A stretch of 62,912 nucleotides of DNA, filler included, from Craspedostauros australis (taxonomy: Eukaryota), in assembly GCA_030167865.1 (NCBI GenBank). It is 9 parts of 9 records of this genome, joined end to end, with 100 filler letters (N's around TTAATTAATTAA, not from the genome) between each part and the next. Parts side by side here need not be neighbours in the genome. Positions count along the whole stretch, not along the records: positions 31,492 to 33,481 come from JALAGF010000786.1; 8 more parts are not named here. One strand, given 5' to 3'. Below the pieces are notes generated by a model. It did not search any database. It saw only the letters and a program-made list of their open reading frames with translations, and was not told where the DNA came from. Made by a program: the position numbers and the translations under genes. Of the stretch, positions 9,960 to 46,867 are shown one piece after another; position 1 is the stretch's first letter; each line of letters begins with the position of its first letter.

Positions 9960-10514
9960 CTTGCTTGTCTTTCTGTTTGTTGCTTTTGCTCTGGCTGTCG
10001 CTTCTTGTTGCTGTGATGCGTTGCAAAAGTCGCGATGGTTGAAATTGTGAGTGATGCAAAGTCAGGTTCGATGAATGCCGTGAAGGCATGTGTGGTTGTA
10101 CGTGGTCGTATGCAGTTGCACATAACGCATTGCTTTCGAAAATAACGGATGTTAAACGATCACATCGAGATGTGCACATGTTGCGCAGGAAGCGAGTTAT
10201 GAGCGTAGTTTTGACATCAATCCAGAGAGTGACTGCTCAACGCTCTACGAGTACAAGATGACGTTTGTAGAGTGGTCGATTGTGTATTGTATTCTTTGTT
10301 GTATTCTGTTCTATTGCGTGTATTCTATTGTATTCTATGTTCTATGTTCTATGGTGTATGGGGTGCTGTATGTTTGCTGTGTATATGGTTGCTGTATTGG
10401 TGTTGGTGCTCGGTCGTGATGAGACTCACTTCCTTGCGTGAAAAATTGCGTGTGGAGATGTGCGAGGATGCGTGAGGCTTCACAACAAGCCTCGTTGTGC
10501 TGCAGCGCACTTGT

Positions 10515-18341: not shown

Positions 18342-18659
18342 TTGTACCATGGTGCAGTTCATCACTTTCAGCATCTCCGTGAAGTGCTGTGCTCGATCGT
18401 TCGTCTTCGCTTATGCGCACATGGATGGATCAGGACTACTTGCAAAGATGAAAAGAGAGTGAGAACCTTTGGAGATGGTTGGTCACACGGATAACCATCC
18501 CAGATGCGACGGCAATGCCGCCTTTGCGAGGCACATGACTTGCGAGCATTGTGCTTCATACGAAATTAATCTGTACACTGTGGTTAGTTTTGTTTAGTTT
18601 ACTTTATGTACCATTAACACTTCTTTGAACAAAATGCTTCTCATTGCGATGACCAGTGA

Positions 18660-20258
18660 TCACACAACCTGTGTGTCAACGTCTGTGGCCTTCGATGCTG
18701 TGTCTGCCATCTCTGTGGAGACGTATTGTGTACGGTGAGATCGGAAACACCATTTCTTGCCTGATGCCAACAGGGCAGCCACAGCAAGCACGACGACTGC
18801 CACACCAAACACGAATGCGAAGATGTTCATTGTTTCGTCCGGTGATGATGGCGTGCTGCTTCGAACGCCCATCTGATCAAATGATTTTGCGTAGCATTCC
18901 ATGCCCTCTGGATACTTCTGAAGCGATTCCTTCAATCGTCTGTCGAGCATGTCAAACAATAGACCGGGTGGGCCGTCCCTCTCATCTGGAGTGAGGATGG
19001 TGCTGTTGGTCGTGTACTTGACGCTGGCATTGGAGAATGGCGGATCGAACTGGACCGGCACCTGTTGCAGCAGCACTCGCGGTTGCTTGAAAGTCTCGTT
19101 TCCCCTGTCACCCATTCCAAAGAAGACTGGGTAAATCAACGACATCTCCACGGATGGTGGTACATCATCAGAGGACACATGCGAAAAGTGCAGAGCCACA
19201 TTGGGTGGCGTTGACACGTACTTTCCCACAACGTCATCTTCGTTGCCAGATCGGTAGGGCCGATTGAGCTTCCAACGCAATCGCAATGCCGACGCCAATC
19301 GATCCAAATCGCCGTCGTGTCCGACGAAGATGGTCACCTTGGTGTCGTAGTGATCATCGATGTCTTGTGGGTCGCGCCGAGAATAAAAGCCGCGTCGCAG
19401 CGTGGAGAGGACGGCATTCGCCACGACGGATCCCACCGACGTCGCGCGGACGTTATCCACCTCCAGGATGCTGCGCGTCCACTGGATCCATTCTACCAGC
19501 TCGTAGACTTCGTCGGTTGTCAGATCAGGCAGGAAGGGCGGGTCGATGCCGCCGGCGCGGGAATAGAATGCGCATTGTGCGAACAGTTTGACGACGTTGA
19601 CGGGGCCGGCGAGTTTGGTGTAGTTGGATGAGGCGCTCAGCACGAGGTCCGTGCCCATATCCACTAATGAGCCGGCTGCCCCAATCCCGCCGCGCTCATC
19701 GAGGAGCCTAAGGACGTATCCCAAACCTTTGGGTGGTGGTGGCACCTTCTGCAATCGGTGTTCAACGTTGGCTTTGAGACGATCCGGCGTGTACTCTAAC
19801 TTGCAAAAGGGTTGATCCCCTTCGATTGGCTTGAAGACGACCTTATCGTACAGAAGATTTTGCATTCCCTCGATCCGCACGGATCCTGCCGCATACTTCA
19901 TGCCCTGCATCAGCGCGAAGGCGGTTTGGACATCACGTTCCGATTCGTCCGTCACAAACTGGATGCGGATGTTGTGCGATGGATCGAGGATCTTCGTCCG
20001 GAGAATCTCAGCGCCGATCTTCTGCGTCCATCGCAATCCCTGTTGTGTGCACCACATGCTCGGTGTGTTCCATCTTGGCATTGGACTTGCCGTGAAATTC
20101 TGCAACGGAATCTTCATCTTGACGTGCTCATCATCATCATCATCATCATCATTGTCGTTGTTATTGCGTCTGTTGCCATCCTGCCACAGGTTGACTTCGT
20201 CTTTTGTGGACCGAACGCAATGGCGCACCAAGAACACATGATGTTTCGTGGCCGTCAT
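18660..20258 (-). CDS. Histidine acid phosphatase/phytase (AppA/Agp-like) with C-terminal TM anchor; true start may lie further upstream
   Basis: LVRHCVRS is a variant of RHGxRxP; TDESERDVQTA fits the R-T-x-x-T-A region; FVGHDGDL carries the HD motif; TPP; hydrophobic IFAFVFGVAVVVLAVAALLA near the C-terminus. Confidence 0.75.
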   Translation of the reverse strand: MTATKHHVFLVRHCVRSTKDEVNLWQDGNRRNNNDNDDDDDDDEHVKMKIPLQNFTASPMPRWNTPSMWCTQQGLRWTQKIGAEILRTKILDPSHNIRIQFVTDESERDVQTAFALMQGMKYAAGSVRIEGMQNLLYDKVVFKPIEGDQPFCKLEYTPDRLKANVEHRLQKVPPPPKGLGYVLRLLDERGGIGAAGSLVDMGTDLVLSASSNYTKLAGPVNVVKLFAQCAFYSRAGGIDPPFLPDLTTDEVYELVEWIQWTRSILEVDNVRATSVGSVVANAVLSTLRRGFYSRRDPQDIDDHYDTKVTIFVGHDGDLDRLASALRLRWKLNRPYRSGNEDDVVGKYVSTPPNVALHFSHVSSDDVPPSVEMSLIYPVFFGMGDRGNETFKQPRVLLQQVPVQFDPPFSNASVKYTTNSTILTPDERDGPPGLLFDMLDRRLKESLQKYPEGMECYAKSFDQMGVRSSTPSSPDETMNIFAFVFGVAVVVLAVAALLASGKKWCFRSHRTQYVSTEMADTASKATDVDTQVV

Positions 20259-21210
20259 TGTCGTCGTCGTTGCTGCTTTGATTGTATTCTCTGTATTATA
20301 CGTCCGTAATTGATGCGAGAGTGATCTTGTAGGAAGAGTAGGAGCTCTGCTTGTTGATGAAGCTGATGTCACTGTTGTGGAGGAGCATTATGCTGACAGC
20401 ATCTGTGCGTGCATACAATGTGATGCTCCAGAGATTGCGTCTGCGAGTGCGGAACGATGATGACGTCGACCCATGCAACACAGAGAAGCACGAAGGACAA
20501 AGAAGGCGGGTAGCACAATCTCAGAGCACCTCTCGCCCGATTGTGTCGCTTCTCCCCATGTTGTTGTTCCGTTGTGTGGTTGTTTTGTGAGCGAGGAATC
20601 TGTTTGGAATCTTTCTCGGCATCACCTCAGGCTACAATCATGAGGGTAGAAACGATCATTTTTTACAGATGTTTGCAGCCCATTGTGGAAGACGAACAAG
20701 GGAGGGTGGTCAACTTGGCTGATGAAGTGCTCCACACAGACAGACAATCGTACGGATCAGTGGTTGCTTGCCAGAGCAGATAGAGGACCAGTAGAAGCCT
20801 AAATTTGGTGTGGTTAGCTAATGAATTGGTTGATGAATGGATGGATGGAAGTGCTCCTCTCGCTCAGTTGGGCGCAGCGATGTGCGTGTAGTACTCTGTC
20901 TGTAGAGAGAGTTCGCTGTGCTGCACCGAAAAGCGGAGGAGAAATGGGTGGTAAAAAGATCTTGGTTGCAATCGCGAACGACGATTACATCCAAACGGTG
21001 TTTCGAAGAGTGGAAGGGTGTTTCGTGGTGTTTGTTCCTTTTTCTTCTTCGAAGGTCGCCTGTTGCGATCACGCAGGCTGCGTGTTTGGGAATCAGTGAT
21101 TGGAAAAATGCCGCTTTGCTCTCACTCTCTCTTGATAGAACGCGACAGCTGCGGCTGGGCTCTGTCCTTGAACCGTGTTGGTGCCAGGACAGATCCTGAA
21201 AATGCAGAGC

Positions 21211-22065
21211 TCAGTGAAGCTGCGATAATGGTGCGCAGTTGGCAAGGAACTGTTCCTGCGGGATCTCCGACACCGGGATGCGCATTGTGTTGGTGGCCCT
21301 GTGCTTCTTGGGGGCATAGAGAATCAAAACGCCATTCATGAGATTGGCGGTGGCGCGCGATATTTCGATGACATCTGTGTTGATAGCAAACCGTCTGGAA
21401 AATCGTTGCTTCTTGCAGACTTGCGCGTTGCGATTGGCGTGCATGGGTCGGTGACTGCGGACGCCGGAGATGCAGAGCAGGTTGTTCTGCACGGCAACCT
21501 GCATGTCCTTGGCCAGGACGCCTGGGAGGTCCATGGAGACGTAGATGCTGGTCGAATCCTCTTGCACATCGATGGAGGGATGGGTGACGGGGTCCTCCAC
21601 GAGTTCTGCGTCAAAGTTGGTGAAACTCGTGCTGGTGCTGCTTGTGCTGCCATTGCTTGGATGCTGCCGTCGCTGTCGCTGCTGGTGGTTGGAAAACTGG
21701 GAGTTGGCAGCAGGCGTTGGCATTGGTTCCGATTCCATGACATCAAAAGGGTTGCGTCGTTTGTTGCGGCGCGTGGCATTGCCGCTGCTGTTGTTGCTGC
21801 GATTGCTTGAGTGTTGGTGTCTCTCGTCTTGCGAGTGTCGGGATGAAGGAGACGTCTGCGATGCTGGCATGTCGGCAGCCTCGTCGTTTGGGACAACGTC
21901 GAATGATGGCATGTTGAATGTGTTCGAGTAACAGTGCTTGGTTGGATTTGTGTTCGAGAATGTGCTGGAGCATGTGTCCATGTTCATGCTGCTGTCTTCA
22001 TGCAAGTACTGGTGTGGGGTAAGCAGTCCATGTGCATGTGCGTGCGTTGTGTGTGTCGTGATCAT
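21211..22065 (-). CDS. Small heat-shock protein (HSP20/alpha-crystallin domain) with a long disordered N-terminus; start uncertain
   Basis: IDVQED...VSMDLPGV...MQVAVQNNLLCISGVR...FSRRF...ATANLMNGVLILYAPK is a canonical alpha-crystallin pattern. Confidence 0.85.
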   Translation of the reverse strand: MITTHTTHAHAHGLLTPHQYLHEDSSMNMDTCSSTFSNTNPTKHCYSNTFNMPSFDVVPNDEAADMPASQTSPSSRHSQDERHQHSSNRSNNSSGNATRRNKRRNPFDVMESEPMPTPAANSQFSNHQQRQRRQHPSNGSTSSTSTSFTNFDAELVEDPVTHPSIDVQEDSTSIYVSMDLPGVLAKDMQVAVQNNLLCISGVRSHRPMHANRNAQVCKKQRFSRRFAINTDVIEISRATANLMNGVLILYAPKKHRATNTMRIPVSEIPQEQFLANCAPLSQLH

Positions 22066-23358
22066 GATGTCTCTATTGGTATTATACGATCGCGTAGTAT
22101 GTGCTGTTGGGTTGCGTTTGGGTTTGCGATGTCTCTGTGGATGAAACGGTGGTGGAAGGACGGATGGAAGAGCAAGGAGTCTCCTGGAGCAGTCGGAACA
22201 GGAACAAAAGGCTCCGATCGTGAATTGTGAGGAGGATCTCAGTTCGTTTCGTTTTTCTTCTTTCCTTCTTGGTCTCTCTCTCTCTTTCTCGTTGCGGTTC
22301 TTCGCGGAGTATTCTGGTCGTCTCGTGTTTCTTCCACCTCGTTGCTCCAAAAAACACTTTGTCGTTGCGGCAATTGCAATGTGGTGCTCTTCTCTTCACT
22401 GCTTCACTCTGATGTATCGCACCTGTTTACTGCTCTAATTTTGAGTTGATGCTGTTGATTAATTGATTGATGACACCTGCTGATTGCACGATGTTAACGA
22501 GACGCAGGGCATCCAGAGTGCCACCGATGATGCGCATCACGACTGCGGCTGCAATTGCACTCGCAAAAATGGGACTGCCTCGCGGTCTGTGGCGTCTTGG
22601 CGCACGCTCTCCACAGAAAAACGTCACAAGGATGGCGCGAAATTCGCTCGGCTGGAGGTTTGGGACACCAGACGGAACGATCTCTGCAATTCCGTTGCAG
22701 CGTCGCCCCCTTGTGGATTCTTGCGTGTCATTGCAGCTGTGGCACCAGTGATGGTTCGTTTGCATTTGCGTGCCAAGAACAAGTTCTCCTCGCCCACCTC
22801 GCCTCCTGGAGTTCTGATGCGATCTTCTGGAAGAAGGATCATGTCGCAAGATGACGTAAGCAATTAACGGCACTTGGACGTTTGAAATACAGACGGAGTA
22901 TTAGTTATTTAATAAATTCAGTGTTTTGGTCGATTCAGTCCTTTGGAGGACAGGAACTCGGACACGGACAAAATGTGACTACGGAGGTTCTCGCCGCAAC
23001 GAACACACATCATCCAGGAACATGATACGCTGCTCTGCTCAGCTCTGCTCTGCTGTGTGGTCGAGTGCTTCTGTGTATTCTGCGAGCGCTTCAACTCAAC
23101 TCAACTCAACTACTTGTCCTGGCCAGAGCAGTCCTACCAGCAATAGAGTAGAGAATGGTGTATCTTGTGTAGATTGTACTAGTACAGTTAATGGAACAGT
23201 TGTACAGTGTGCGAAATTCCTGCTCTCTCAGCAGCATCCGTGCTTTGAGCTCCTTCTCTTCGTGTGTCATCCGGAAGAATGGTATTGCACATGTGAATGA
23301 GTTGCTGCTCTGCGTGTTTCGTGCCATGCTACAATACCATGCACTTGCGGAATACTCC

Positions 23359-23386
<28 letters not shown>
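23359..23386 (+). repeat. (AG)n microsatellite
   Basis: About 14 perfect AG units. Confidence 0.9.
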
Positions 23387-23389
<3 letters not shown>

Positions 23390-23412
23390 TCTGCCCTCCT
23401 CTCCTCTAGAGT

Positions 23413-26400
23413 TTAGTACATGTGCAAGTCGTATGGGCCGATGTAAGTCAAGAGGACAGGGAGGAAGACGAGGCCGTGTCCCATTCCCAACAACACCAAG
23501 GAGATGAGCATGACGAAGAACTGCCAAAACAGCGTCGATGACGACAGTCCCAGGGCACAGAATGCGATGAGTGAGGACGCCCCACCCAGGAGGACGGACC
23601 CGCCAACGTGCTGCAGCACATGGCGCACACGATCCTCTCGTGACGCAACGCTACCATCAGCATTGCGGTTTGGCGCGTTGAGGTAGCCGTGGATGAGATG
23701 GACGTTGAAATCGACAGCTATGGGAATAGATGAAGCGGTGCGTATTGTGCCAGTGCATATGGATACGCGCACCACACAAGCATGAGAGAAAGGCGAACAC
23801 GAGACGAAATGGAACGGAATAGAGTACGTGGAGTACGGATACAGAAGAAGAAACAGGAATTCGTTGTGATGATTGTTTGGACACAAAGACAGAGAGGAGG
23901 GGACCAAAATGTGAGATCTTCGCTGAGTTTGGACGCAGCGGGTTATGCCTTCGTCGCCATTCGTATTTGTCTCGCAGCCCCCTTGCGAAGGAAACACAAA
24001 TCGATACGAAACATCCCGCATTTGCATTCACTTACCGAAGCCAACTGCCATGACCACAAAAATTACCGTCAACGAGTTGAGGGCAAAGCCAGCCCACGGA
24101 ATGACGCCGATGAGGCAGACATCGACCATGGCTGTGACCGTGACGGCGAGGAAAGGGCCAGACGGGTGCGGCAAAGCGAGGCTTGTAACGACCAGAATCG
24201 CAATCAGTCCAGCAACAAGCGTGTAGATCACAACCCTGTCCATGCTCACAAAGTGAGCCCAGATGAGATACCAGCGGGTCGATGTGAACATCTTGTCATC
24301 ACTGCTCTGCTGATTGAGCGGCTGCCGCGCTGCAATTTCGAGCTGCTTGGCGTAGATCCTCTCCTGGTATTTTGGTTCGTTCATAGTGATGTTGTACACG
24401 AATTCTGTTCTCGATGCTTCGATCTCTCCTGTGGTTGGGTTGCGCACCAAGTTGTTGGTGTGCACCCTTCCGTAGGACTCGATGGAGAGAAAGTCGTCCA
24501 AGGCTTCGTTGAATGTGCGACCTGGCATGTCGGCATCGGTCTCGTTGCGGTACGCCAAGAAATCCGTCAGCCAGAACGCGGCTGGAGGTCCAACGACGAA
24601 CGGATGATTGTGCACCATGTCGTCGATGAAGTCGTACATCTGCTTCTGGATGCTGGGGTCGGAGACATCGATGTCGCGGAAGTAGAAGTTGGAAAGACCG
24701 GCCAGAGCCGTCGGGCTGTACATCGGTTCGGCCTCGAGGAACTGATCGGCATAGGATCCCTTCGGGGTGAGCATAGTGTAGTCAAAGAGTTTCTCGATCT
24801 GCGTTGCGCTCCATACTGCCATCGCAAAGAGAACTGCGAATCCCATCAGCACTAGCACCTTCGTGATGGGGTGCAGGAGGATCTCGATGTACGTGTCGAT
24901 GACCTGATTGGTCCATGGCTGCTCGGCCACGTCGACATCGGGATCGGTGTTACGATTTTCTGGCTCGCGGCTCGGCCGAAGTGCCCGCGAAACAGCGTCC
25001 TTCACGTCGCCGAAATCCTGATTGACGGCCATCCTGAGACGGGACCTGCGGCCGAGCGGCTGGCGGTCTCCATGCAAATCGCCAAGGCCTTGGTCCATTC
25101 TGTTCCATTCCTCCTTCGCCGATACGCTATTGGCTGAGGAGTGTAAATTGTTGTCCTCGTCGCTTTCCGACGAGGCAGCGAAGTTGGATACACCTGTTGC
25201 AGATGTTTCTCCATGCCGTGCCACATCGTCGGGACGGTGCTTGACGCAGAAGAGGCAATCGTAGCGACGATTCAAGATACGGCGGTGGTTCAAGGACACC
25301 AAGGCCATGAAGAAGGTGATCTGGTACACGAAGTCCACGAAGATGGTGATGGCTGCGTAGATGCACATCCAGCGGATCGCTGGGATGTCGCACAGCGCGC
25401 CGATACCGAATGCGGCAACGTTCGTCATGGTGGTGGTGAGTATGGTCATTCCGGTCGCCGTGATGATCTCCTCGACCAGACCTTCCATCGAGACGTTCTT
25501 GCTTTCGCCGTACGTCATCTCGTTGAGCTGGCGCTCGTAGGCACCCCAAATGATGAAGGCATCGTCCAGACCGATGCCGAAGATGATGATGGGCAGGGCC
25601 AGGGTCAGCGAGGTGAATGGGAGCTGGAAGAGACTGCTGATGCCGTAGCCTGCCATGATGCTGAGCATGATGGTGATCATGGCTCCCAGGCCAAGGATGC
25701 CGCTGGAATGGACGAAGCGGGACTGTTCGACCTTGTGCTTTCCGAAGCGGGTGAAGATGAGTGTTGAGATGATGCCCATCAGGACGAACGTGCCGCCAGC
25801 CAGAGGAACATCCTTCAGCATGCCCTCCGTCACCGCCATCGTGATGGTCGTGGTCGTGATCGTCTCGCAACGGTAAACGTGGCCTTCGGAGCCTGCTTGT
25901 TGAGCCGTGACATCGGCACCAGTCTTCACCCAATGCCTGTCGAGGGCTTCGGCCTCATCTGTTATCTCCGCGTCGAGATTCATGTACTTTTCTTCCTCTA
26001 GCACATAAGGCACGAACAACTCGATTTTGTATGCATTGAGGAAGGACAAGGATGATTGGGCCTGCTTCTCGGCTTCTTCGTTGCTTGCTGTAGAAGCATG
26101 AACCGGTGACGGCGAGAAGATCCGGATTTGTGGCACACGCCAACCATCGGGGAAGTACTCTTGAGAGATTGTGTCGGAGAGATCCTGGTTGATCAAATTC
26201 ATCACGTACGCATCCGCGCCTTCGCTACCAGCATTGCTTTTGTCAATCGAGGCGGCCACGGACTCGATGTACTCCTCAAAGGCGGCCCTGTTGTCTGGGA
26301 GTCCCCAGAATCTGGTGACTCCAACGAAGATACAGAAATCTTGGTCACCGGAAGCAAGAGTGGTGTTCGCATCGCCAGTTTCTCCGATGTTCTCGTCCAC

Positions 26401-27222
26401 GTTCGCAGATGATGGATTATCCAACATGTACTGGCGAGGTATGTCGATGCACATCGCGCGATAGCCATCAGTGCGTTGGATCGCTTGGATAGCGTCGTAG
26501 ACATGGTTGATGCCATTGACCGAAAGGATGTTGTCGTCGGGGCTGTCCGTGTGGATGATCATGGAGGTAATGCGTCTCTTGGGGAAGGACGACGCAGCGC
26601 CAAACTGCTGCCTGTCCACCCATTCGCTGTCGCGCCTCGCCGGGCCGTTACGCGGCGCCCAGAGGGACATTCCATCGTTATCGACGTAGAAGGATCCCGT
26701 GAGAACGGAGATGCAAGGGATTGCGATGCTGATGATCGTGAGGAAGGCAATGCAGCAGATCGCGTTGTTGGTGGCCGCCAGAGCAAGCGGAATGATCACC
26801 TTGCGCATGATAACTCCATCGACTTTCATGATCCCGCGGGAATAGCGGTAGGCCATGGTGAGTTGTTTCACAGATCGGCGAACCAACGATTCGCGTCGTG
26901 GTCGGGCGCTGATGGGTGCAGAGCCATCCTCTTCTGCCATATCCCTTGGCGACAACGAGCGGCTCGACCTGAAGCTCCAACGCCACGAGGAGCTGGATCT
27001 CATGTCTTGGCGTCGACACTCGATTTCTCCACCTGTCTCTTCGTCACCGCCGTCGATCAGGTCCGCGCCGGCGAAGCAGACCTTGGCCTGGGCCTGGGCG
27101 TCAGTTTTTTGGTTGGACGACGCATCCGAAACACAGCTGTTGCTGCCGGAGCCTTCGAGGCTGGCTGTGCCGGTCTTGGCATCCGCTGTGGAGGCAGAAG
27201 GGATGGACGCTTTGTCTGGCAT
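23413..27222 (-). CDS. Patched/NPC1-like sterol-sensing-domain RND protein; exons 27222-24036 and 23717-23413
   Basis: Sterol-sensing motifs PIIIFGIGLDDAFII, TTMTNVAAFGIGA, IPAIRWMC, DFVYQITFF. Second half MAVGF|AVDFNVH and GMGHGLVFLPVLL joined by phase-1 intron 24035-23718 (GTAAGT...CATAG). Confidence 0.9.
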
Positions 27223-27528
27223 GGTGAGGGCTTAGGGTTCGTGCTGTTTTGGAGTATTGTGAAGTAGTATGCATGCACTGGTATGAGTATGGCACTGATA
27301 CTACGATCTGTGTCGACGTTTGGCAGATTGCTTCGAGTGTTGGAGGGTCCGGAATGTGCGAGAGCCAGTGTGGTACGGTGGATGATGGCGAATTGGTTGA
27401 CAGTACGAGTACTATGTGTCTGTAGAATNNNNNNNNNNNNNNNNNNNNNNNNNNNNNNNNNNNNNNNNNNNNTTAATTAATTAANNNNNNNNNNNNNNNN
27501 NNNNNNNNNNNNNNNNNNNNNNNNNNNN

Positions 27529-29226
27529 TGGCCGAGCATTCGATGCAAGTTCACCGCGCTGATCTCCTTGGATGGGTTCTTGACGATGGCTGTGCAAGCC
27601 TTGTCGTCGTTCATTGGCATGATGGGATGCATCTGCACTCCCGTGATGAATCCGTTGGCTGTGGGGAAGACTCGGTCGAATACGATCTTCGTTCCGGATC
27701 CGTTGATGATGTCCATCAGNNNNNNNNNNNNNNNNNNNNNNNNNNNGTTGTACAGAGCCTTGTTCGTGGAGAAAAGGTTCACCGCCATTTTCGGTGTGTA
27801 CTTCACGTCATCGAGCCGGATGATGTGGCCAGTGTTGTTTTGTTGCTTGACCTTCAAGCGAATGGAACCCATTTTGGGAGAGTCCAGCTTCGTACTGTCT
27901 CCCACTTGGACGAAGGACTTGATATGCCGCACGTTGAAGAGGGCCGTGTCTGAATTGACGATGTGACACGAAGCTCCGCTGTCAGCGAGCCAGGTGTCCT
28001 TGTTGACCTTGTCCTTGTATCTGGTGCTCAGCTCGTGGAGCTGATCTACGGCTGCTGCAGCTATCTCGTCGTCAAAGCTGTCATCGTCGTCGTCTTCGTG
28101 AGCTCCATCTTTGTTGTATGGATTGTGGTGATTCTCATCATTCATGTCGTCGGGTAGTTGTGCATAGTCCGATGGAACTGTGCTGTTTCGATGAGTTCTG
28201 GTGACTGGATCGAAAGGTGTTACTCGTGGTCGCTCACGCAGTAGCACGCACATACACCCTCCAAGGATGTAATGCAGATCCGTCTCTGGGATCGTTTCTG
28301 TGTCTTCTGCTTCCAACAGTCGATTGATGATGACTGAGTTGGCGAGAATCTCTTCAATGGATCTGAAGTTCACAGACAGAATGGATCCCATCATGTTCAC
28401 CCATATTGGCATGAATGCTCCTTCTGGAGTTCCTGAGAACATCTCCACTCCCGCTGCCATCACAGCGTCGAAAATCAGTTGCTTTTGAATCGTCAATGCT
28501 GTGGCCGCTCCGTAGGGGATTGTGTCATGTTGATGGATTTGACTCGACCTGTTGGGATTCCCGACTGGTGGGAATTGGATCCCTGTCGGATAGACGACAC
28601 GCTCGTTCGGATTGAAACTGTCGTCTGGGTGATTTTCTGTTTCATCACTATCGTCTTCATCGAAGATACCCGATCTGTTATTCCCTGCCGCTGGAGCGGG
28701 CGGCGCCGCGCCGCCATTCGTTTCATCTCGGCCTCTGTCATTCTCGTTGGGTTCGTCGCCATCTTCTTCACTCATGGCCTCCTTGATGTCGCTATCGATG
28801 GCCTCGTTGCCCATCTCAGCTCTGTCGCCGTATGGACCGATCAGGTCGTTCGCGTTGAAGCAGCATTCGTAGCTCACTTCGCGTCTTGGATCCACCTCGT
28901 GGATGATGGGCTCTTCGCTGAGCCACTCCGGGACGATCTCATCGTCCTCCACTTCGTTGTCACTCCCGATGTACTCGAAGTTATCGAAGAAGGAGTCTTT
29001 GATGTAGTTGTTGGACACCAACATGCAGAGCGGCATGTCCTTCGCCGAGAGTACCATCTCGTGTCCGCTCTTGTCGTGTCCTTCCGTTGCTGTGTTGGCC
29101 TGCTCGTCGGCCTTCTTCTTCTTGTTGAACTTTTTCTTTCGGCACTCCGCCTCGCGATGTCCGAAGATGCCGCAGTAGTTGCACTTGCCGTTGAAGCCGC
29201 TTCCCTTGTTGCGCTTTCCGTTCATT

Positions 29227-29258
<32 letters not shown>

Positions 29259-30503
29259 GCTGTTGTTGTTTTTCTTGTTGTTTGATTTCTTGCGTTCTGG
29301 GCAATCGGCGGATCTGTGACCATACACACCACAGTTGTGGCAGGTCCCCTTGAAGTTATCGGTGCTCGTGAAGCCGGTGTCGTTACTCTTCGTGTTACTG
29401 TCTTGGAAGTCGTCGATGTACGCCTTGCCTCCTTGATGAGTGGCGTATGCAGTGCGGAGCACTCCTCTGATTGCGTTGATGGTAACCAGTTCCGGATTAA
29501 ACGTGAGTTGGTGTTGGAAGTTCACGATGTGAGTTCTGTATTCCACGCTCACCGTGCTGAGGATCTGCATGATCATCTCTTCGTCTGTGATCGTGTACTT
29601 GACATCGTGGAGACGCGAGCGTAGGCCCTCGAGTCGCGTGATGTAGATGTCAGGGTCCGAGTCTCTCTTCATCTTTTCGTTGTTGAATTGGCGCTTGAGT
29701 TTGATCTTCGTTGCTGCATCGGATGGACGGAACTTCCCTGCGAGAACATTCCACGCTGCATGTGGATCTCCTTCGGGATAATCGTCGGAGACGCATTGGT
29801 TGATGTACTGGATGGCCTGCTTGCCTTTTCCTTTCTCCGCATCCATCATGAGGATCAGATTGCTGAAGCAGTCGCATCCCAGTTCGTAGATTTCCTTCAT
29901 CGCTTCCTTGGCATCGTCGACGGCTGCCTCGATCTCACTCACTGTTGGGATCTTCGTCTTGCCCAACATCACATCTCTCGTCTTCTGTGTACGAGCATAT
30001 GCCTTTGCTTGGGACTCCCATGTGCTATAATCCTCTTGTTCACCACTGAATATCGGCGCCTTGATGCGTCGCTTGTTCGTGTTGGCTGGTGTCACCATGT
30101 TGATTCGTTGTTTCGTTGTTGGTGCGCTCGCGCCCTTGATTTCCGTTTGTTTCTGTGTTGTCACTTTTTCGATTTTTGCTTGTTGTTGCGCGGAGATTGT
30201 TTTCGTCACAAATTCTCCTCCTGGTAGTGTCTCACTTTTCCCACTCTGTTTGGCTGTGCGAATGCTCTCCGTCACACCAGTCTCCTCTTGCTTGATCGCC
30301 TTGAGGATCCTCTCCTTCTCGTGATGTAGTCTTGCAGACCGTTCTTCTTCGGTCTTGTCGATTGCGCTTGCCTCTGCGCCTGATAGGACAGTAGCCGCGG
30401 CTACTTCCTTCTGCTCTTGAAGTTGAGTCTCACTCGCACCTTCTTCTTGCTTGATAGCCAGTTGGGACAGAGGGATGTCTTTCAATTCCTCTTCCTTGCT
30501 CAT
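27529..30503 (-). mobile_element. Ty1/Copia (CoDi-type) retrotransposon gag-protease to start of integrase, truncated by a gap
   Basis: Gag FSG...YSTW and DPDIYITRLEGLR; two CCHC knuckles (CHNCGVYGHRSADC, CNYCGIFGHREAEC); protease WLADSGASCHI; DVKYTP...NLFS; pre-integrase LHRMLGH. Confidence 0.93.
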
Positions 30504-30612
30504 TCAGCCTGCTGCTCTTGAATGATGTTGTCTTCCTTGCACGATCCAATCCGCAGGTTTGCCCTGATCTATCGTTTATAAAAGTATTGGCAAGTTCCGT
30601 GAACGGATACCT

Positions 30613-31149
30613 TGCGATCGTGGAAGATGGTGTTGTTGTTTGGTGCTGATTCTCTCTGCTATTTCATTATGCTGCTACTCCAATCCGCTTGGTGTACTCT
30701 GTTGCTTCGACTGATGCTCTTGGCACATCTGTTCGATGGTCTGACTATGAGTCGGTACACAAGATACTCTCTTACTCTTGCTTGTGTTCTCTCTCTCTCT
30801 CTCTCTTGGTATTGCGTGTTCACACCATGCAATATTCTGTATTCGATGCATACTCCGCATTTCGTTATCTACAAGCTCACTACTCCATGAGTAATTGTCA
30901 ATGCACCCACACTGTATTCCTCCTTGCATACTTATGATCTTGATGTCCCTTGGTCATTGAATCTTTGCCTTCTTGATCTGATGTGGAGACAGATGCCAAT
31001 GTGGTGACACAATGACATCTTGTTGATGTCAGCTGTCAGATTCCAAGGTCCTTGTCATTCCACATTCCATTGATGATGCAATGGGTCAGCAAGGGTATCG
31101 TCATTTGAGGTTTAGTTGGGAAGTATATCAAGCCTGACTTGATATCACA
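30613..31149 (-). repeat. Candidate 5' LTR (~537 bp) of the Copia element
   Basis: On the minus strand it begins TGTGAT and ends ATCGCA (imperfect terminal inverted repeat, TG...CA), followed by PBS-like AGGTATCCG about 100 nt before the gag ATG. No 3' LTR is available for confirmation. Confidence 0.45.
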
Positions 31150-32059
31150 TGTTTTGTTGATGGATGGACAGACGATGTTCCTCATAATCTCAGAAATCCG
31201 TGCTTACAGATTTCCTCCAGAAATTCAGTTCGTTTTCGTGTGTTCCATTTCATGATGTGATGTTGGCAAATCACAGTTCACTATTGACACGAATGTAGTT
31301 GTACCATCTGTACATGAGTAAAAAGAAAACGGGTGAACGATGCACATACACGAATGTACATCTCGACACAGGTGTCAATGATATCTCTACANNNNNNNNN
31401 NNNNNNNNNNNNNNNNNNNNNNNNNNNNNNNNNNNTTAATTAATTAANNNNNNNNNNNNNNNNNNNNNNNNNNNNNNNNNNNNNNNNNNNNGTTATTTTT
31501 GTGTCGTGAATGGTGTGCGTCGTGGAGCCATCGCGTTGTGTTGTGCCGCTCTGGTCGGAAAAATTCCAGCCAAACCACACACAAAAAACGCTCCAAGGCC
31601 TCAACTGCATCGATCGGAGCGCCAGCACAATCGGTGTGTGTCGCACAAACCAATCGAATGGCAAAGGCTCCTCTTTGTTGGTACCGCACTCGTACATCTG
31701 TACCACATCGTGCCATGCCAGTATTCCACTTTCTCTTCATCACACATGTGCAACCCTCGCGATCGTTGCTGCCATCAAGTCCAAGCGTCTGTACTCGTCA
31801 CTGGAGCACCAACGATGCATCCTCTGATCATTCATCTCTGCTCGTGCCCTGCCGACGGCGCTGCCACTAGCACAATCGTCATGTATTGGTAGAGTAGAGT
31901 AGAGTAGAGTAGAGTAGAGCAGAGCGCAACGAATCCACACCATACAATGCTCGTATGCTATACTATGCTGTGATGTGATGTGCCAGTGCAGCTCCTATAA
32001 TACGATACATACGACTATGTATTATGCCCATTGTATCCACTGTGCCTTTCTTGTGTAAT

Positions 32060-33481
32060 CTACCTATTCCACCACAGTTCGGAGGCATCCAGATGACGAA
32101 CGTTAGTGATCTTCGTGCAAATCATGATGTTGCGCTTGGTATCGTACGCGGTGTGATAGCTGGGTGACAGCCAGCTGACATCGACCTCGTCAAATCCACA
32201 TTCGATGAACCATTCCGTCGTCTGCGTGCTGAGAACGAAGACGCAGGACGCCCCCTTCTGCAGACACAGACATTCCATGTAGCCAAGCATGGCATCACCA
32301 AGTCCTTGCGCGCATTAGCTGCGATCCACGACGAGGCACGCGATCTTAGCGAACCTGTTCTCCAACATCTTGAGCTGCCCAAACACCACGACGAGGTCAT
32401 TGCGCGTGTAGACGTGGTATGAGGATAACATTTTTCTAACATGGCCTTTGGCCGATCCACTAGCGTTCCCATCTGGATGAGCGGTGTGATGAGCTCATGG
32501 ATGGCACTGATGTCCTCGATCTTGGCCTGGCGGATATTGTTGTAGAGTTCGCGAGAGAGCATGGTGCCGCTGCTGTCTTGTGTGCACAGCTCCTGCAGCA
32601 ACGCCCCATGCCGTGGTGAGATGATGTGCGCACGTCAGACGCCCTGCTCAAGTGCATACATTGCCCAGCCGATCTTGATGAGCTTGTTGCGCTTGGCGCT
32701 TTCCTGGGGACAGCTCTCGCCTAAGGTGACGAGACCGCGCTTGTGGACGTCGACAGTGCGGTGTCGCAGCAGGTTGTGGGCGTCCTTGACGCGCAGATGA
32801 TGGATCTGCTTGCCATGGACATTGTGCCACAGCTGCACGTTGCCTTCTGTGAAGTAGATGATCTTGCTCGCATCCATGGCACCTGCGACCGAGCCTGCCA
32901 ACTTTTGGAATTGGCATTGAAGACTTCATTGCTGGGGCTGATACCCCATGTTGTGAGCAGGACGATATCGCAGGAGTTGTGAACCAGGCAGATCTTCTCG
33001 ATGTCGATGCGGCGCGCAAATCCTGTGGATATAGAATCGACACCATCAAGGATGTTCAATGGCTGCGCCGTGTTGATAGGATCCATTTGGTGGGGACTGC
33101 TGGTGCCGGTGCTGGTAATTGCCATTGCCATTCGATTGATATTCCGAATCGAAATGCGCGGTCTGCTTCGACAATGGCATGTGCAAGTCGTTGGCATCCT
33201 GCATGCGCAATGATCGTGCCAGATGACGTTCGATCTTGTATCGGATATATCCCACCACCTCCTTGACGACGCGCAACGCATCACGGTCTGTGACCGCCAC
33301 GCCACGATGCCAATCCTGCCCCGCGATATGTTGCTGCAGCTGGTAACAGCATCCTGTGACGATGATGATCTTGAGGCTCAGCAACCATGACAACACGATG
33401 TCGTTCATGAGGTCCTGCAGGAAGTTGGCATCCTGACCCTCCATGAGATCGCCCAGATTGTGGAAGACAACCAGGGTGTTG
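32060..33481 (-). pseudogene. argA: N-acetylglutamate synthase / amino-acid N-acetyltransferase (ArgA-type, kinase-like + GNAT domains) pseudogene, 5' truncated by a gap
   Basis: LDGVD..TG..RRID, ASKIIYFT, GV*RAHII, GALLQEL..DSSGT, IRQA..EDI..I.ELITPL...GTLV.R, FVLSTQT.EWF motifs. Stops at 32635-32637 and 32315-32317; frameshifts near 32430, 32905 and 33080. Confidence 0.88.
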
Positions 33482-33647
33482 NNNNNNNNNNNNNNNNNNN
33501 NNNNNNNNNNNNNNNNNNNNNNNNNTTAATTAATTAANNNNNNNNNNNNNNNNNNNNNNNNNNNNNNNNNNNNNNNNNNNNACTCACAAATAAACATCAA
33601 GAGCTCCGACCAGGGCACGAAACAACGGGCCAATACGTCTTTCGTAG

Positions 33648-39275: not shown

Positions 39276-39775
39276 NNNNNNNNNNNNNNNNNNNNNNNNN
39301 NNNNNNNNNNNNNNNNNNNTTAATTAATTAANNNNNNNNNNNNNNNNNNNNNNNNNNNNNNNNNNNNNNNNNNNNTGGAGGTCGGAATGATATTTGACCA
39401 CTCGGATCCCCAATTTCGGTGGCAAGTTTGGAGAAATCTGGTTCCAACACCTGCGTCATCGTGACGTCAGCGATGGTTGGAACACTTCTTTGGACCAATC
39501 AGAATAAGAAAACATGGCAATCAGAAGCCAAAAACGTCCGTGAATGATGGGGGTGCTTGATGAATGGCATCAGTGCTCACCGAGCAAGAGAGCAACAGAC
39601 ACCAAACTTTAGTTTTGTATATATAAACGCCATATGATGCTACTATAGAGAGACGAGTACAGGATGGTCCATACGAGCTAAGTCCGGAGAGTTTAACTTT
39701 GGTTGATGCTGTTTTTGGCCTTTTTTGTTCGGGACTTACGTAGAACGTGTACCACGATCTACACGACATTATTCT

Positions 39776-39819
39776 TGTAACCAACTGTAACCAACTGTAA
39801 CCAAAAAAATTGGTTACAG
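39776..39819 (+). repeat. Three direct TGTAACCAA repeats plus one inverted copy forming a hairpin
   Basis: TGTAACCAA at 39776, 39786 and 39796; TTGGTTACA at 39810-39818. Confidence 0.85.
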
Positions 39820-42800
39820 CCGGCTCTTTGAGGCACTAGTAGTCAACCGCTCTGCCATTTCAGAGCCGAGGGATTGGTTCGCAAATCGCCGAAGGACGGT
39901 GGCAACACGTAACGTGGTGAGACAACAGCAACAGGAAGAGAGATAGAAGGAGAGGAACTGCGACAGCAACGACAGCGCCGGCAACAGGAAGAGAGTGGAA
40001 CAGCAGAAACATCCATACGACGACGTACCAAATGTAGCTCGCTTGCTCGACCATAATCGTAATCGTAGTCGCACTTTGCGCACTCTGCTCCGCTGCCCAA
40101 CGGTACCAAAGCCGACAGCGGCAACAACAACACAGGATGACGAGTAGACTCGCGAGGGAAGGATGACAAGAAGACAGGCGCAAAGGACGAGGGCCCAACA
40201 TTCCAGCGAACTGCAATTGACACGATGATCAGTTCCCGTCCTCTCCGCACTACTAAAGTTGTGCCATCCCATGGATGAAAGCGCCATTTGATGTTGGTCG
40301 ACGTGTTTCCTGTTTCGCCCGCTCTTCTGCCTGTACGTGCGCTTTTGCGAGTATGGAGGAGTGTCGTGACAGAAACCTCGACAACCTGATCCTTGTCATT
40401 GGTGCCGCGCATTCCCGCAGACTGTGTCCAAAAACTTCCAGACAGGCATTGAATTGTACCTCCCGGATCGGTCATTGGAGAGCGCGAGTAGCGCTCGTAT
40501 TCTTGTACTCTTAGCCGCAACAACAAGTTCTTGCAGCAACGTCACAGACGCACTCCAGCTTGTGCATTCGACTCGACGCGGCAAGGAATACCCCGCAGCA
40601 TCCCCATTTCAACTACTTCGTGTTTCGCGAGGATGCACAAAATGGCGATCCAGGTACATACCTACGAGCCATACGAATCATGGTTGACGACATGTTTTGA
40701 TAATTCTCCGTGTTTCTACCGGTGGTAGGAATCGCTCGTGGGCGGAGCCGTTGGGCTATTGTGAAGCCACCTTCTGAGCGGGGATGACCTAAATGCCGTT
40801 TCGCCACCCATCGAATATTAACGGTTTCGACGCGGCGGTTTTTTTGCGTTCCGATGACAAAGTTTATACCTCTGCACGTTGACACTAACCACTTATTGCA
40901 TCACGAATGACCATGCATTCTCTGGATGGTTCGTAGCGGCGTCATCTACGTACGTGTCTACAGGCCAAAAGGGCAGCACAAACACATCTTTCGGGCACAA
41001 GCACCGTCCTCAACGACCGGAGAATAGTGATGTGCGTGGTGTGCCTGGCTGTGCTGCGTGAGCGCTGTGCTGTGTGGATGAGCAGTGTTGGCGTTTTCTG
41101 AGCGTTTGGCCACTACAGGGCAGAACGTCAATGATGGTAATGACAAACAACGAACGGACGTTGGTGCTGAAGCACCGTGGGGCCCTTTCGCATCGCGTGT
41201 TAGTAAGAAGGCACCAACCGTGCGAGGGATGAGCACACCACACGTGGACGGCGCCTCTCTCCCAATTCATACCAAAAAGAGGTTACTTCAACACGAAGGT
41301 ACCGCACACAGAAGTGCTACGGCAAAGACGGAGCACATACAACAGGTAACAGACAACACAAACAACAAACAGCTCAGACAGCACAGACACGAACCCGCCA
41401 CGGAGGCCAAGAAGAGTAGAGCAGAGCAGAGCAGAGTAGACCTGAGTCGAGCAAAGGGGAACGGAGGAAACACAAACTCCATCACCAGGGCCTTCGTTGT
41501 CTCGTGATCGTCGTCGTGACCATCGTTGTCTTGGTTGTCGTTGTCTTGATTGTCGCGGCTCCGACATCATCCACGCCAAAGCCCAACCTTTCGCCATCAT
41601 CGTCGTCGCTGCGGATTGTCGCTCGGCCATTCTTCCATCCTTCATCCACCGCACCACACGGCACCGCGCCAAACGAAACGAAACGAAGCAACCAGCGTCC
41701 ACATTCGAATCCAGCCCAGCCAAGCAGAGGGGTGCCGCGAGGAAGCAAACAAGCAAGTAACTCGCTATTCAGCCTCTCTTGTGGTGTAAAGCTCTACCTT
41801 TATTCTTGGGAATCACACACACACACAATCGGACTCGCACGGTGCACATTTGCGTCTACAACACAGATTCGAACAGGACGAAATCGGCAGAGGCAACAAC
41901 GACGGCAACAACGACAGCAAAAGTACCACATTGACTCAACAGCCACATCAGGAGGACCAACATCGGCAGGGCAAGGAATACAAGCAGAGTACTCAAGTCA
42001 GCTCAAGTCAGCTCAACTCAACACAAGCACACACACATCCAATACCCAATACCCACGGACAAAGGGAGATACTGGTGCGTCCACCAAGAACAGCCAAACA
42101 CACTCAAACGGCGCTTGATCGCACTCTCAGTGCTATGCTGTTGCTGCTGCTGTTCGATTCAATTGCTTCATTGCATACATTCGGGATGTGGTGAATGGAG
42201 AATTGCTTGGCTACACAACCACGAAACAGCCTTGATCTGGGGTCGTATCCACGAGTGTCGTCAGCTCATCGTTGGCCGGACACCACAGGCTAATGAATCC
42301 GTTTGTTGGCCACTCGGGATGTAACTGTCCACCGCCCAATGTCATAACTCACAACTCCTCAACTCCCTTGCACATCGATATCTGTCACTTGGGTTACCAC
42401 GCGCGATGTCGTCTCATGTCTGCGTTGCTGGACTTTGGCGATCATGGCATCGTATTGCATCACATTGCATTGCATCACACGGCGCCGCAACGCATCACAT
42501 GCTACTGCCTGTATGCAACGCGTGGCACTTGGAACGAATGCATCACCCACAAACAACGCACTCACACACACGCACACGCACACGCACACACATGTGCACA
42601 TTCGTCCGTCCGTGCCATCCATCGACGCATGTTATGGCGCGTTGCGATTATGGTACGTTCTGGGTGGGCTGTGGGCGTCCGTTGCTCGAAATCCACCTTC
42701 ATCATCAAAACTGTTGGCTGCGCACGTTGTCGGCCATTCTTTTTGCACTTTGGTCACAAACATCTTCGCGACTGCGCGCACGACTGTTACCGTAACCGTT

Positions 42801-43396: not shown

Positions 43397-46300
43397 ATGG
43401 TGGGGAATTCACCAGTGAAATACAAGAAGGCCCCACAGGCACCCAGGCGTTTCAAATCTTCCTACATGTTCTTCTCCAGCGAGAAGCATAAGCAGATACG
43501 GAAGGAGCTGTTGGAGAAGAATGAAATGGAAAAGGTACGTCACATCATCGCATGCCCAGCGACATTCGATGGGACAGATTGTTTCTTGATGGCAACAATC
43601 GTTTTGACCTTTGTCGCGATCTGCTTGCGCATGCCAATCAATCGCTTTAGGCGCACCAAGATCTCCCTGCGCGCGTTCATCGGGGTTTGTGCTTACGGGT
43701 GCGTTTGCTTTGCGTTGATGTTTGTGTCAAGAAATACACACAGACCTGGACGATGAAAGATTCCGGGACGACCCAAATCGCGACACATTCTCGAAACCAG
43801 CTGTCGTGTCGCCAAGCACCGATACCCACGCGCAAAAGCACGAACACGCACAAGAACATCAGTCCGCAAACCACGTAGCGTTCACACTTGGCGTATTTGC
43901 GCATACTGATGACATCCTCGCATGGACGAACACCCCACTTGCACTTTTACTCGCACTTACGCTTGTACTCGCACATGTGCGATACAATACAATGCAATTC
44001 AATGCACTACTTATTCACTACGTCTCACAATCCACATTCATGTTCCTGTTCCTTCATCACTGCGTCCACATCCACATTTACATCTGTACTTGCCTTGGTG
44101 CATCCTTTCATGTGCTTCTGTTCACATCTGCTCGTACGTGATGACATATCACATTCTACCATGCTCCTTTCATTGCACGTATACATGACATGTACATGCA
44201 CAACCAATCCAATCACTCTACTCTGCATACATATGATGCTCTCCACCTGCGTTTCGCAATCGTGGACGACCGTCTCATTGGCGCCTGCACAATCAATAAA
44301 TCATCGCAAACACAATCGCAAACGCAAACATCTACGCTTGTATCTGCACCTGCATCCGCACTTGCTTTCGGACGATGAAACGAACAGATCCAGACGACTG
44401 ACATCGCCAAGATGGTGTCAGCAGCATGGAAGGCTTTGCCAAGAGACGAGCGTGATCGCTTTGACGAGATGGCGAAGAGGGATAAGGCACGATACGAGGT
44501 GGAAAAGAACATGTACACAGGTCCATGGAAGGTTCCAGCAACGCGACGTCCGTCCAAGGACCCCAACGCACCGAAACGACCCATGTCGGCCTTCTTGGCG
44601 TTTTCCAACTGGAAGCGTCCCGAAGTGAAGCAGCAGCACCCCGGGATTGGTTCGACTGAGATCTCGAGGATACTGGCGACCATGTGGAGAGCAGCCCCAG
44701 AGGAGGAACGCAAGCCATTTATTGAGGAGGAGGAGAAGTTGCGGGAGGCCTACAAGGAACGCGCGGCGGAATTCAGAAAGAAGCGGGACGACAAGAAGCA
44801 AGCGGAACGCAAGCTCCGAGAAGATAACGCTCACCGCATCGCAGAGGCCACGAAAAACGGAAACGTGCCGATCTCGATGTACCTGGGGCATTCGTCACAT
44901 CACGCGCATCAAAATTACTCATCGCACGCAGCTGCTGCACACGCGGGACATCCCGCACATCAGTACAATCCATACCAGCCATACAACAACACCGTGTCGC
45001 AGCGCCCTCCGACGCATGACGGAAGCTCTGGATCAGCCAATGGCGCGTACGCTGCACACCATCATCACACTGCCCCGCTTCCATATGCATCCCACCACGC
45101 TGCTGCTGTCTCCTCCTCGAATGCAAATGCAACAGCGGCGGATGGATCGTTCCTATACTACGGACACCCGTACCACAACGGCAATACCCCCGCTGGAGCT
45201 TCGTACCATCACGATGAATCCGCCTACAATCCTGTGATGCATCATGCTGGGTCGCTACCAATGGACCCGACGGCGTCATCGTCGTCATCGTATCGTGCAG
45301 AGCAGCAGGGGTTCTACTATGGTAATGGCGCTCACAACAACAACGGCAGCAACACCAACAACAATGCGCATCCCAATGGGACGCAGATGGGGAATAACGC
45401 GGGCGGCGGGAGTGGCAACAACGATGTATCAGCAGCCATAGCAGGAGCAGCAGCAGCAGGTATGGAACCCATGCACAAAGATGGGTATGGGAACAGCCAC
45501 GGATATGCTCACGGACATGATTACAGGTCCGGATATGGAGCAATGCAAAACAACTCGCAAGGCCACGATCAACGGCATGACCGAGACGACCATCGTCAAC
45601 CAGGGTACGGTGGTGGCCCATCCTCCCAACACGAGGATCCGGGATCTGCTCACTATCAACCGTACTACCCACCGATCGGAACGAGCGCCTATGGCCCACC
45701 GGCTCCCCCGCCACTGCCGGGATCGATGTCCACGCACCAAGCATCATACGATGGTAAGTACCAGTATCATTCGCATCCACTTCGAGAGGGCTTGTGATCC
45801 AAGTGCGCATACATACGCATTGGATACCCAAGACTCATCTCACTTGGGGATGTATTGAAGCGGTCAGCAATGATATCCGACTCGTAGTAACCGTGCGGTT
45901 GAATTCGTATGCGACGTGGATCGTTCTTGGAGCACAGGTACGGCGCGTTGGAGCTCCACCCTGCACCCTCTCATATTGTCGCTTACCATCCCTTTCCTTC
46001 CCACATGTAATGGTGCTCTCTTGTCACATCGCACATTATGACGCTGCTCAATACCATGCTACTGCTGCTCTGTACCATGTGTCTCATGGCATACGTATCA
46101 CCATCTTGCGTCATTCATCAGATGGTAGCATCCACACCGGCAACAATCACAATGAGAACAATAACATCAGCACCAACAGCAACAGTTCAGGACAACGCAA
46201 TTATTTTCCTGATCACAACTCGATGTTGCACATTGGGGGCAAGTACGGGAATCTACCAGCGGCGGATGATCCCTCGTTCATACACGGCAATGGTACAAAT

Positions 46301-46867
46301 CATCATGGAGGCAACAGCAGAGAGCATTCGTCATCTTCCAACGGCGTTGCACATGTTCATGAAAGGACCCATCCACACCCCTACCACGACCAACAAGACC
46401 ACCGCCAGCAGCTGCATCGATCAAAGGACCATCAGCAGGACTATTTCGCTTCGGGAGCGCGTTATAAAGATGATAATGCTGCCAAGTACGAGGACAACGG
46501 CGATGGCAACAACAACAACCACAACCCTGAGAGTCCTACTCAGGCCCATGACTACAGATTGGCGACGAACGGCAGGCAGGGATCAATTTTGGAACACCAC
46601 GGCATGGATCAGGGTAGGAACATGGGGTTGCTGCCCACTCATCCGCCATCTCCGTTGGCCAGAAGCAACCAAGTTTCGGCGTCCACAGTAGCATCAGCTC
46701 CAAGATCGTTTGAACCGGAACCCATCCATCGTCACGACCAGACGCAAGATGGCCTTGTCGCGTCGGATGCGAATGGTGTATTACTTCCGCAGTATGGCTC
46801 CGAAGAAACGGGATCGCAGGCACCGAACGGTCATGGACCAACAGAATACGACAAACGAAGTTTCTGA
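43397..46867 (+). CDS. Double HMG-box protein with a long low-complexity tail (~749 aa); exons 43397-43534, 44388-45753, 46122-46867
   Basis: Box 1: APRRFKSSYMFF...IAKMVSAAWKAL...DKARYE. Box 2: KDPNAPKRPMSAFLAF...EISRILATMW. GT-AG introns in compatible phases 0 and 1; the third exon is less certain. Confidence 0.85.

Follow-up and report, generated by a model that had tools for sequence, protein, structure and literature searches.

In fungal repeat-induced point mutation (RIP), C:G>T:A transitions dominate the divergence and strip the DNA of the target dinucleotide, mutation strikes both members of a pair, the original gene among them, across the region of homology, gene duplicates of close similarity are not kept intact, and the mutations come in bursts tied to the sexual cycle; MIP methylates without directly mutating. 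Gene capture by transposons with terminal inverted repeats (TIRs) has been described mainly in plants. According to Gisby and Catoni (2022, PMC8903248), the Pack-Mariner elements of rice and maize are bounded by TIRs, use a TA target, carry host gene pieces between the TIRs and are mostly low in copy number, and Pack-TYPE elements are defined as non-autonomous. In diatoms, CG methylation has been shown (PMC5124317, PMC9998398), loss of DNMT5a strips this methylation and releases transposons (PMC9998398), and in mutation-accumulation lines of P. tricornutum no dinucleotide mutated more readily than CG, without a bias towards either coding or intergenic sequence (PMC6604790); an Emiliania study (PMC7486954) reports no CpG excess. 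Here, we describe a decaying argA gene that is a passenger in a high-copy mariner-type element of the diatom Craspedostauros australis, an element that keeps its transposase sequence and captures genes serially. Our search of the literature outside subscription journals found no report of mariner gene capture in diatoms, and its matches on CpG depletion in diatoms included none on diatom transposons.

The window, that is, the whole stretch of DNA analysed, is 62,912 nucleotides long and comes from assembly GCA_030167865.1. A preliminary description had read positions 32060 to 33481 as a broken argA (NAGS) copy, and its similarity to an intact gene together with its stops and frame breaks bears this out (Table 1). 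The copy is transposon cargo. It lies on a contig of 1990 bases (C786, window 31492-33481) with an N gap on either side, and its 5' part runs into one of the gaps. A DNA search of the genome itself found pieces of this copy on 23 contigs.

Table 1. Coordinates of the argA cargo copy, its lesions and its surroundings in the window.
Feature	Position	Strand	Remarks
argA (amino-acid N-acetyltransferase) pseudogene	32060..33481	-	85-86% identity to intact C2141; parent codons about 360-891
Premature stop CGA>TGA	32635..32637	-	CpG transition; common to sister copy C5216
Premature stop TAC>TAA	32315..32317	-	transversion, not CpG; common to C5216
173-bp frameshifting deletion junction	33073..33074	-	ACA microhomology; conserved motif lost; common to C5216
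1-bp deletion in T run	32901..32902	-	confined to near-identical trio C786/C128/C3941
1-bp deletion	32429..32430	-	in 4/5 distinct transposon-borne copies (window, C5216, C6448, C5227)
Captured 3' flank of parent argA gene	31643..32059	-	matches L013:3726-4125
Element-side spacer, convergent transposase to cargo	31492..31642	.	in cargo-bearing copies; no homology to parent locus
Assembly gap; transposase-bearing left part of element expected	31392..31491	.	C128 has transposase 3' end here
Assembly gap; rest of argA and right terminal repeat expected	33482..33581	.	C3941 and C919/C920 tile across

The preliminary description had proposed looking for an intact argA paralogue in the same genome, and one is present. 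Contig C2141 (L013:4126-6798) carries an 891-codon frame, open from stop to stop, that matches PF00696 and PF00583 and includes an N-terminal part missing from the other argA copies. The closest relatives of its product are amino-acid N-acetyltransferases, at 77% identity. A protein search of the genome found no further whole argA, only a distant paralogue of 37% identity on C1869; this argA-like gene (L029:2454-4595) has a 714-codon frame with an AA_kinase match and no acetyltransferase match in that frame. Differences found only in C2141 comprise 14 synonymous changes on about 321 sites and 10 non-synonymous changes on about 1059, and these proportions indicate selection on C2141. In run X1, which is RNA only by our guess, two contigs match C2141 with no differences over 383 and 152 bases; they are the only cover of the parent in that run, and no letters specific to the transposon copies were listed. 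We take C2141 to be the working argA copy, on the strength of its open frame and of the selection on it, with expression only suggested. Its product departs from residues that are nearly invariant in 120 homologues (E435V, V439I, F441Y, S554T, F558M, K699R, R811H and N864D), and it contains an insert of about 75 residues rich in Gln, Ser and Asn.

Five lesions break the frame of the window copy, namely one CpG stop, one transversion stop and three deletions. The most widely shared of the frame breaks among five distinct argA copies is the 1-bp deletion at 32429/30, and the fifth copy has a 1-bp insertion of its own. Changes common to the window copy and C5216 comprise 44 synonymous and 61 non-synonymous or stop changes, against 14 and 10 for those confined to the parent. 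We considered whether the copy could be a retrocopy with a lost intron and discarded this, because the 173-bp gap, a deletion with ACA microhomology, shifts the frame and takes out a conserved motif, and because the parent reads through this stretch in an open frame. It is extremely improbable that the lesions are assembly or sequencing errors, even though the contig is short and lies between two N gaps, and the deletion at 32901/2, in a T run and seen only in three near-identical contigs, could itself be a homopolymer error. Both stops, the 173-bp deletion and the deletion at 32429/30 recur in C5216, which is 96% identical to the window copy and lies in a 43-kb contig, and the deletion at 32429/30 is found in C6448 and C5227 as well.

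Both ends of the window element fall in gaps, so that linkage there rests on near-identical contigs. C128 has one difference from the window copy in 1422 bases and continues into the transposase 3' end; C3941 has none in 1376 bases and overlaps C919/C920 at 100% up to the TIR and TA. The window copy, C128 and C3941 may be one collapsed repeat, and for this reason we count five distinct whole-argA copies.

The transposon copies and the parent diverge at about L013:6094, beyond which the copies join a common end. At the other side, beyond 400 bases of captured 3' flank, there is the spacer and then a convergent ORF. The common end gave 207 first-look candidates and the 5' part of the ORF gave 240, and the best 40 of each were scored. 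An empty element of about 4.75 kb (TA, a TIR of about 55 bp, the ORF, the TIR, TA) is complete in C3077 and C913. The TIRs have adjacent arms of 27 and 30 nt, 90-93% complementary to their counterparts at a distance of 4.7 kb. TA stands directly outside 31 of 33 TIR-core matches, read by eye, with flanks that differ; of the remaining two, one has TG and the other belongs to a copy that a nested insertion has cut. Matching TIRs with TA at both ends were found in C3077 and C913, which are empty, and in C1205, which is loaded.

The transposase ORF of C3077 is open over 899 codons. In an alignment of 18 sequences D453, D616 and D655 are invariant, with 38 residues between the last two and 39 to the non-invariant D656. 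The query itself had no Pfam match and no meaningful PDB profile match, and a search of shorter proteins with the alignment found no match; the Tc3 helix-turn-helix (HTH) model PF01498 was weakly matched by 7 of the 18 members (best E 2.8e-4), and an atlas lead pointed with high confidence to DDE_3. Seventeen related proteins were found, one of them from the diatom Epithemia. By the features listed in PMC7325037, the element is, judged on its sequence, of the IS630/Tc1/mariner type: a TA target duplication, TIRs and a DDD/E transposase with an N-terminal HTH are all present. The described group that it comes nearest to by motif, and of which it may be a member, is the DD39D PlantMar group (PMC7325037), with which it shares the TA duplication, the TIRs, the DDD triad, an empty element of 4.75 kb and, in homologues, the Tc3-type HTH; the diatom element differs in its spacing of 38 residues from the second to the third invariant Asp, its TIRs of about 55 bp, a long C-terminal tail and the lack of a Pfam DDE match.

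Copia-type elements lie close by. The window contains a Copia LTR retrotransposon at 27477-31368 (-) with gag, a zinc knuckle and a protease domain, whose 5' LTR ends 23 bases before the gap adjoining the argA contig, and LTRs related to it adjoin the mariner transposase in C170 and C5377. Capture of argA by the neighbouring Copia element was rejected, because the flanks that all copies have in common are ends of the mariner element, and the neighbours of the Copia LTR differ between C170 and C5377. Insertions of the mariner family were also observed elsewhere: in C460 (L032:1200-1296) one has entered a second family copy at a TA within its terminal repeat, and in C5611 one adjoins a 1757-codon ORF of tandem ankyrin-like repeats (L015:2-5272).

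The cargo has the transposase 3' end on one side and the right TIR on the other, with argA facing the transposase, and the captured part of argA runs from about codon 236 onward and takes in 400 bp of 3' flank. In sister subfamilies, stubs of argA are retained on either side of other sequence. A PCMT fragment (PF01135, E 2.3e-4) is carried by C4806, C5311 and C5332; a PT-repeat ORF by C4461, C2666 and C1296 (best 40 of 105 candidates scored); and a Ser/Thr-rich ORF by C1205, C5091, C5931 and C5945 (23 of 23 candidates scored). Free parents of these three cargoes were not identified among the scored matches. C1205 is a fully assembled loaded element of about 8.9 kb with matching ends and TA, a stop in the transposase and a stub of the argA 3' flank; no element was seen that is assembled in full with argA whole and a TIR at either end. 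Since the stubs are common to the sister subfamilies, argA was probably captured first, which fits the model in PMC8903248 that more internal cargo is newer.

The element resembles Pack-Mariner as described in PMC8903248: in addition to the TIRs, the TA target and the host gene pieces, both hold sequence drawn from two or more loci, with newer cargo more internal. Here the captured sequence includes argA, with an identified parent, and the PCMT piece. The diatom element differs from the Pack-TYPE definition in that its cargo-bearing copies keep transposase sequence (with a stop in C1205), and it differs from the mostly low-copy plant elements in being a high-copy family whose cargo consists of nearly complete genes, kilobases in length. 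By retaining transposase sequence and swapping kilobase cargo at one site, such a mariner offers a route to gene duplication in diatoms. Such cargo is also a trap for annotation, as it makes argA look multi-copy. The proposal of the preliminary description that the gene had been duplicated or captured by a transposable element was thus right on the second count.

The same description had attributed the destruction of argA to CpG-directed hypermutation and had suggested tabulating substitutions by dinucleotide context. Taking the present-day parent C2141 as ancestral, we counted 190 substitutions in 1416 aligned bases of the window copy. Transitions were enriched at CpG, at 57 of 261 positions against 34 of 563 other C/G (3.6-fold, Fisher p=1.2e-10); there were 44 A/T transitions on 592 positions and 55 transversions. 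Sorted by 3' neighbour, C>T changes numbered 12/225 at CA, 16/185 at CC, 57/261 at CG and 6/153 at CT, and an excess of T>C at TA was not found in the copy (TA 4/53, TT 8/105). Sixty of the 130 CpG dinucleotides of the parent are changed in the window copy, against about 21% expected from other C/G, and 70 are kept. The enrichment therefore holds; the claim of destruction by CpG hypermutation does not, since CpG transitions make up 57 of the 190 substitutions (30% of the divergence; all C/G transitions, 91/190) and one of the five frame breaks, the TGA, and the CpG observed/expected ratio (o/e) of the copy is still 0.93, where the corresponding span of the parent has 1.03 and the window as a whole 1.01.

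Ten departures from the ArgA consensus had been offered as examples of CpG change. Against the parent, six are CpG transitions (GVRRAH, with CGA>TGA at 32635-37, GCCYQ, MECLC, FIECGF, TQD and TRND). Two more, YKIER (parent TAT GAG, window TAC AAG) and DSSG (GAT GGC against GAC AGC), are plausible by inference, as they fit a CpG lost in opposite directions, although no examined copy has CG at either place. LLSLK is not a CpG change (CTG GGC>CTG AGC), and ENRF is of CpG type but is common to the intact parent too.

The distribution of the changes bears on a RIP-like system, for example one dependent on DNMT4/RID, in which duplicates would be recognised by homology, their CpGs mutated in bursts and duplicated genes silenced. 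The CpG changes of the window copy are strand-symmetric (29 C>T, 28 G>A) and scattered, and they accrued stepwise over many branches. With the direction of change judged by which observed copy departs from the rest, changes shared by the window copy and C5216 were 32/257 at CpG and 21/562 at other C/G, those of C5216 alone 12/190 and 7/575, and those of the window copy alone 5/169 and 7/583 (p=0.15). One copy is strongly skewed, as RIP would have it: C5227 has 14 CpG transitions among 21 private changes (14/231 at CpG against 1/577 elsewhere, a 35-fold rate ratio), which differs from the window copy (5/21; p=0.012). Over all five copies, the heterogeneity of the CpG share has p=0.08. An excess of C>T in a single dinucleotide context of repeated sequence is indeed common to fungal RIP/MIP and to this locus; here it is weak and gradual and accounts for a minority of the divergence, AT is not enriched (GC 54% in the copy, 57% in the parent), the original appears to be spared and large gene families are tolerated. 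Thus none of C>T dominance, loss of the target dinucleotide and intolerance of duplicates was found. The parent frame is open and its CpG o/e is not lower inside the duplicated part (1.06) than outside (0.87-0.93), and the 899-codon transposase frame is open too. A single-domain DNA methyltransferase gene on C358 is a candidate for the enzyme of such a system, and diatom DNMT4s may group with RID according to PMC9998398, the sole diatom paper that our literature search on diatoms and repeat-induced point mutation found. On balance, we reject RIP/MIP as the reading of the argA decay, because the CpG excess is modest, is shared by all repeats tested and leaves the parent apparently spared, and we regard a RIP-like system in this diatom as very unlikely.

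The comparison was extended to other duplicates, as the preliminary description had also suggested. Direction-free CpG odds exceeded 1 in all of the 21 duplicate pairs, which share sequences and are not independent, with a range of 1.6-4.2: 2.1-4.2 for argA, 1.8-2.1 for the transposase, 1.8-3.1 for the silicon transporter (SIT), 2.4-3.4 for other cargo and 2.0-2.5 for NPC1-like paralogues. This excess across all pairs is what a RIP-like system would also produce. The argA cargo is therefore the upper end of a general pattern and not a special case. Changes found in single copies gave CpG rate ratios of 5.4 for argA (49/992 against 35/3831; six copies, one of them the parent), 4.7 for the transposase (25/502 against 29/2729; ten copies), 3.2 for the argA 3' end (13 copies) and 2.6 for a SIT exon (33/768 against 44/2688; eight copies), the last rising to 4.1 at synonymous sites. 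The persistence of duplicates here speaks against RIP as well. There are 83 SIT candidates, of which the best 40 were scored and were 81-94% identical; six of the eight copies of the tested exon have no stop and two have TGA. A gene like NPC1/Patched at window 23414-27300 has a second copy of 98% identity, and both have an open frame of 1067 codons. The idea of a RIP/MIP-like system that silences duplicates is therefore not sustained, as the same modest excess is seen in transposases, silicon transporters and the intact NPC1-like pair.

All of the pairs tested are duplicates, so repeat-targeted methylation is not separable in them from genome-wide CG mutability. When ordinary genes were searched for a second copy in the genome, window 44000-52500 yielded none and 13000-27300 only NPC1-like copies. 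It is possible, though we think it the less probable case, that CG is simply the most mutable dinucleotide throughout diatom genomes and that argA displays this only because selection no longer acts on it, without any need for methylation specific to repeats. The mutation-accumulation lines of PMC6604790 point this way, with neither coding nor intergenic sequence favoured, as do the odds of 1.6 in the intact NPC1-like pair (27/64 transitions, p=0.049) and the parent itself, which has TG/CA where a copy (C6448) has CG at 16/266 against 2/231 for TC. Yet the NPC1-like odds are the lowest of the 21; transposases are CpG-depleted (o/e 0.73-0.82), whereas most genes are not (of eight window ORFs at 0.85-1.22, six are at 1.02-1.22 and two at 0.85-0.87); and the CpG share differs between copies. 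Furthermore, a native-looking SIT on C4517 has private transitions at 3/98 CpG positions against 15/367 others, and a DNMT5-type gene is present.

That gene, on C574, encodes DNA_methylase, SNF2 and Helicase_C domains in that order, with a Tudor-like domain. We take this order to be the DNMT5 layout. It is one of five loci with cytosine methyltransferase matches (C358, C574, C6552, C5116 and C6677), which comprise the single-domain locus (C358), the DNMT5-architecture locus (C574), two that look DNMT2-like by eye and one that is interrupted. With the studies of DNMT5-dependent CG methylation (PMC9998398, PMC5124317) and of P. tricornutum CG mutability (PMC6604790) our data share a CpG transition excess that is strongest in repeats and a gene of DNMT5 architecture; those studies used methylomes or mutation-accumulation lines, whereas ours concerns another diatom and works from the divergence of copies.

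We therefore favour passive deamination of 5-methylcytosine (5mC) over both a RIP-like system and CG mutability alone. In the course of events that we propose, a Tc1/mariner-type transposon evidently took up most of the host argA beside its right TIR, and the loaded element then amplified. In later derivatives, the middle of argA would have been swapped for other sequence with edge stubs left, a structure that is seen in the copies and an order that we infer. The cargo, evidently freed from selection, was broken by deletions and stops, and it gains C>T at CpG at three to five times the rate of other C/G, as do the adjacent transposase and other repeats. The likeliest cause would be that a DNMT5-type enzyme methylates repeats and the resulting 5mC deaminates passively, in addition to genome-wide CG mutability, and the presence of the DNMT5-architecture gene makes this likely. 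C2141 would meanwhile have stayed the working copy. As a whole, this account of a mariner-captured argA that decays with a CpG excess, drawn as it is from sequence comparison, is in our judgement probably correct. The CpG excess itself is expected biology, and the dozens of element copies form a natural series for measuring the rise in mutation from DNMT5 methylation.

The parent may not have stayed wholly untouched. The TG/CA found in it where copies keep CG suggests CpG loss on the parent side too. Transitions confined to the parent number 5/231 at CpG against 4/577 at other C/G (p=0.13), and the CpG-type replacements in its product are R656Q, E672K and G793R, with V439I and R811H common to the copies. 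Of 216 conserved columns, the product has a residue other than the majority one at 10, where the homologue median is 4 and 4 of 120 homologues have 10 or more. C5611 sides with the parent against the other four argA copies at 13 sites, from window 32569 to 32200, a tract that we read as recombination or gene conversion among copies, in either direction. Homology-guided CG methylation might thus spill from the transposon-borne argA onto the sole working argA and erode it, with exchange of tracts between copies, but we consider this improbable. If it were true, methylation spill-over would constitute a mutagenic system, weak and directed by homology, that acts on the host genes of a diatom, one in which a transposase-bearing mariner is included as a platform for serial gene capture.

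Several other repeated sequences were observed. The SIT family is very large, with members at window 8300-10100 (-) and on C5396, C4966, C2081, C1462, C1544, C4517, C2001, C6661 and others, while PMC5124317 gives six SIT copies for Cyclotella cryptica. Several of the copies found here belong to a multi-kb unit that is itself repeated and also holds an ankyrin gene and a gene of 311 aa, and no link of SIT copies to the mariner element was seen. In the NPC1-like pair, all 88 differences are confined to the opening 1.1 kb of an alignment 4 kb long, and this gene also has two partial contigs at 100% and a group of paralogues at 69% (among contigs C3422, C6648, C3770, C3836, C3837 and C5904). Window segments 39400-39850, 59014-59300 and 59617-60127 are ends of other repeat families (best 39 of 408 candidates scored), and the last of these is 67% like sequence inside the PCMT-carrying element on C5332.
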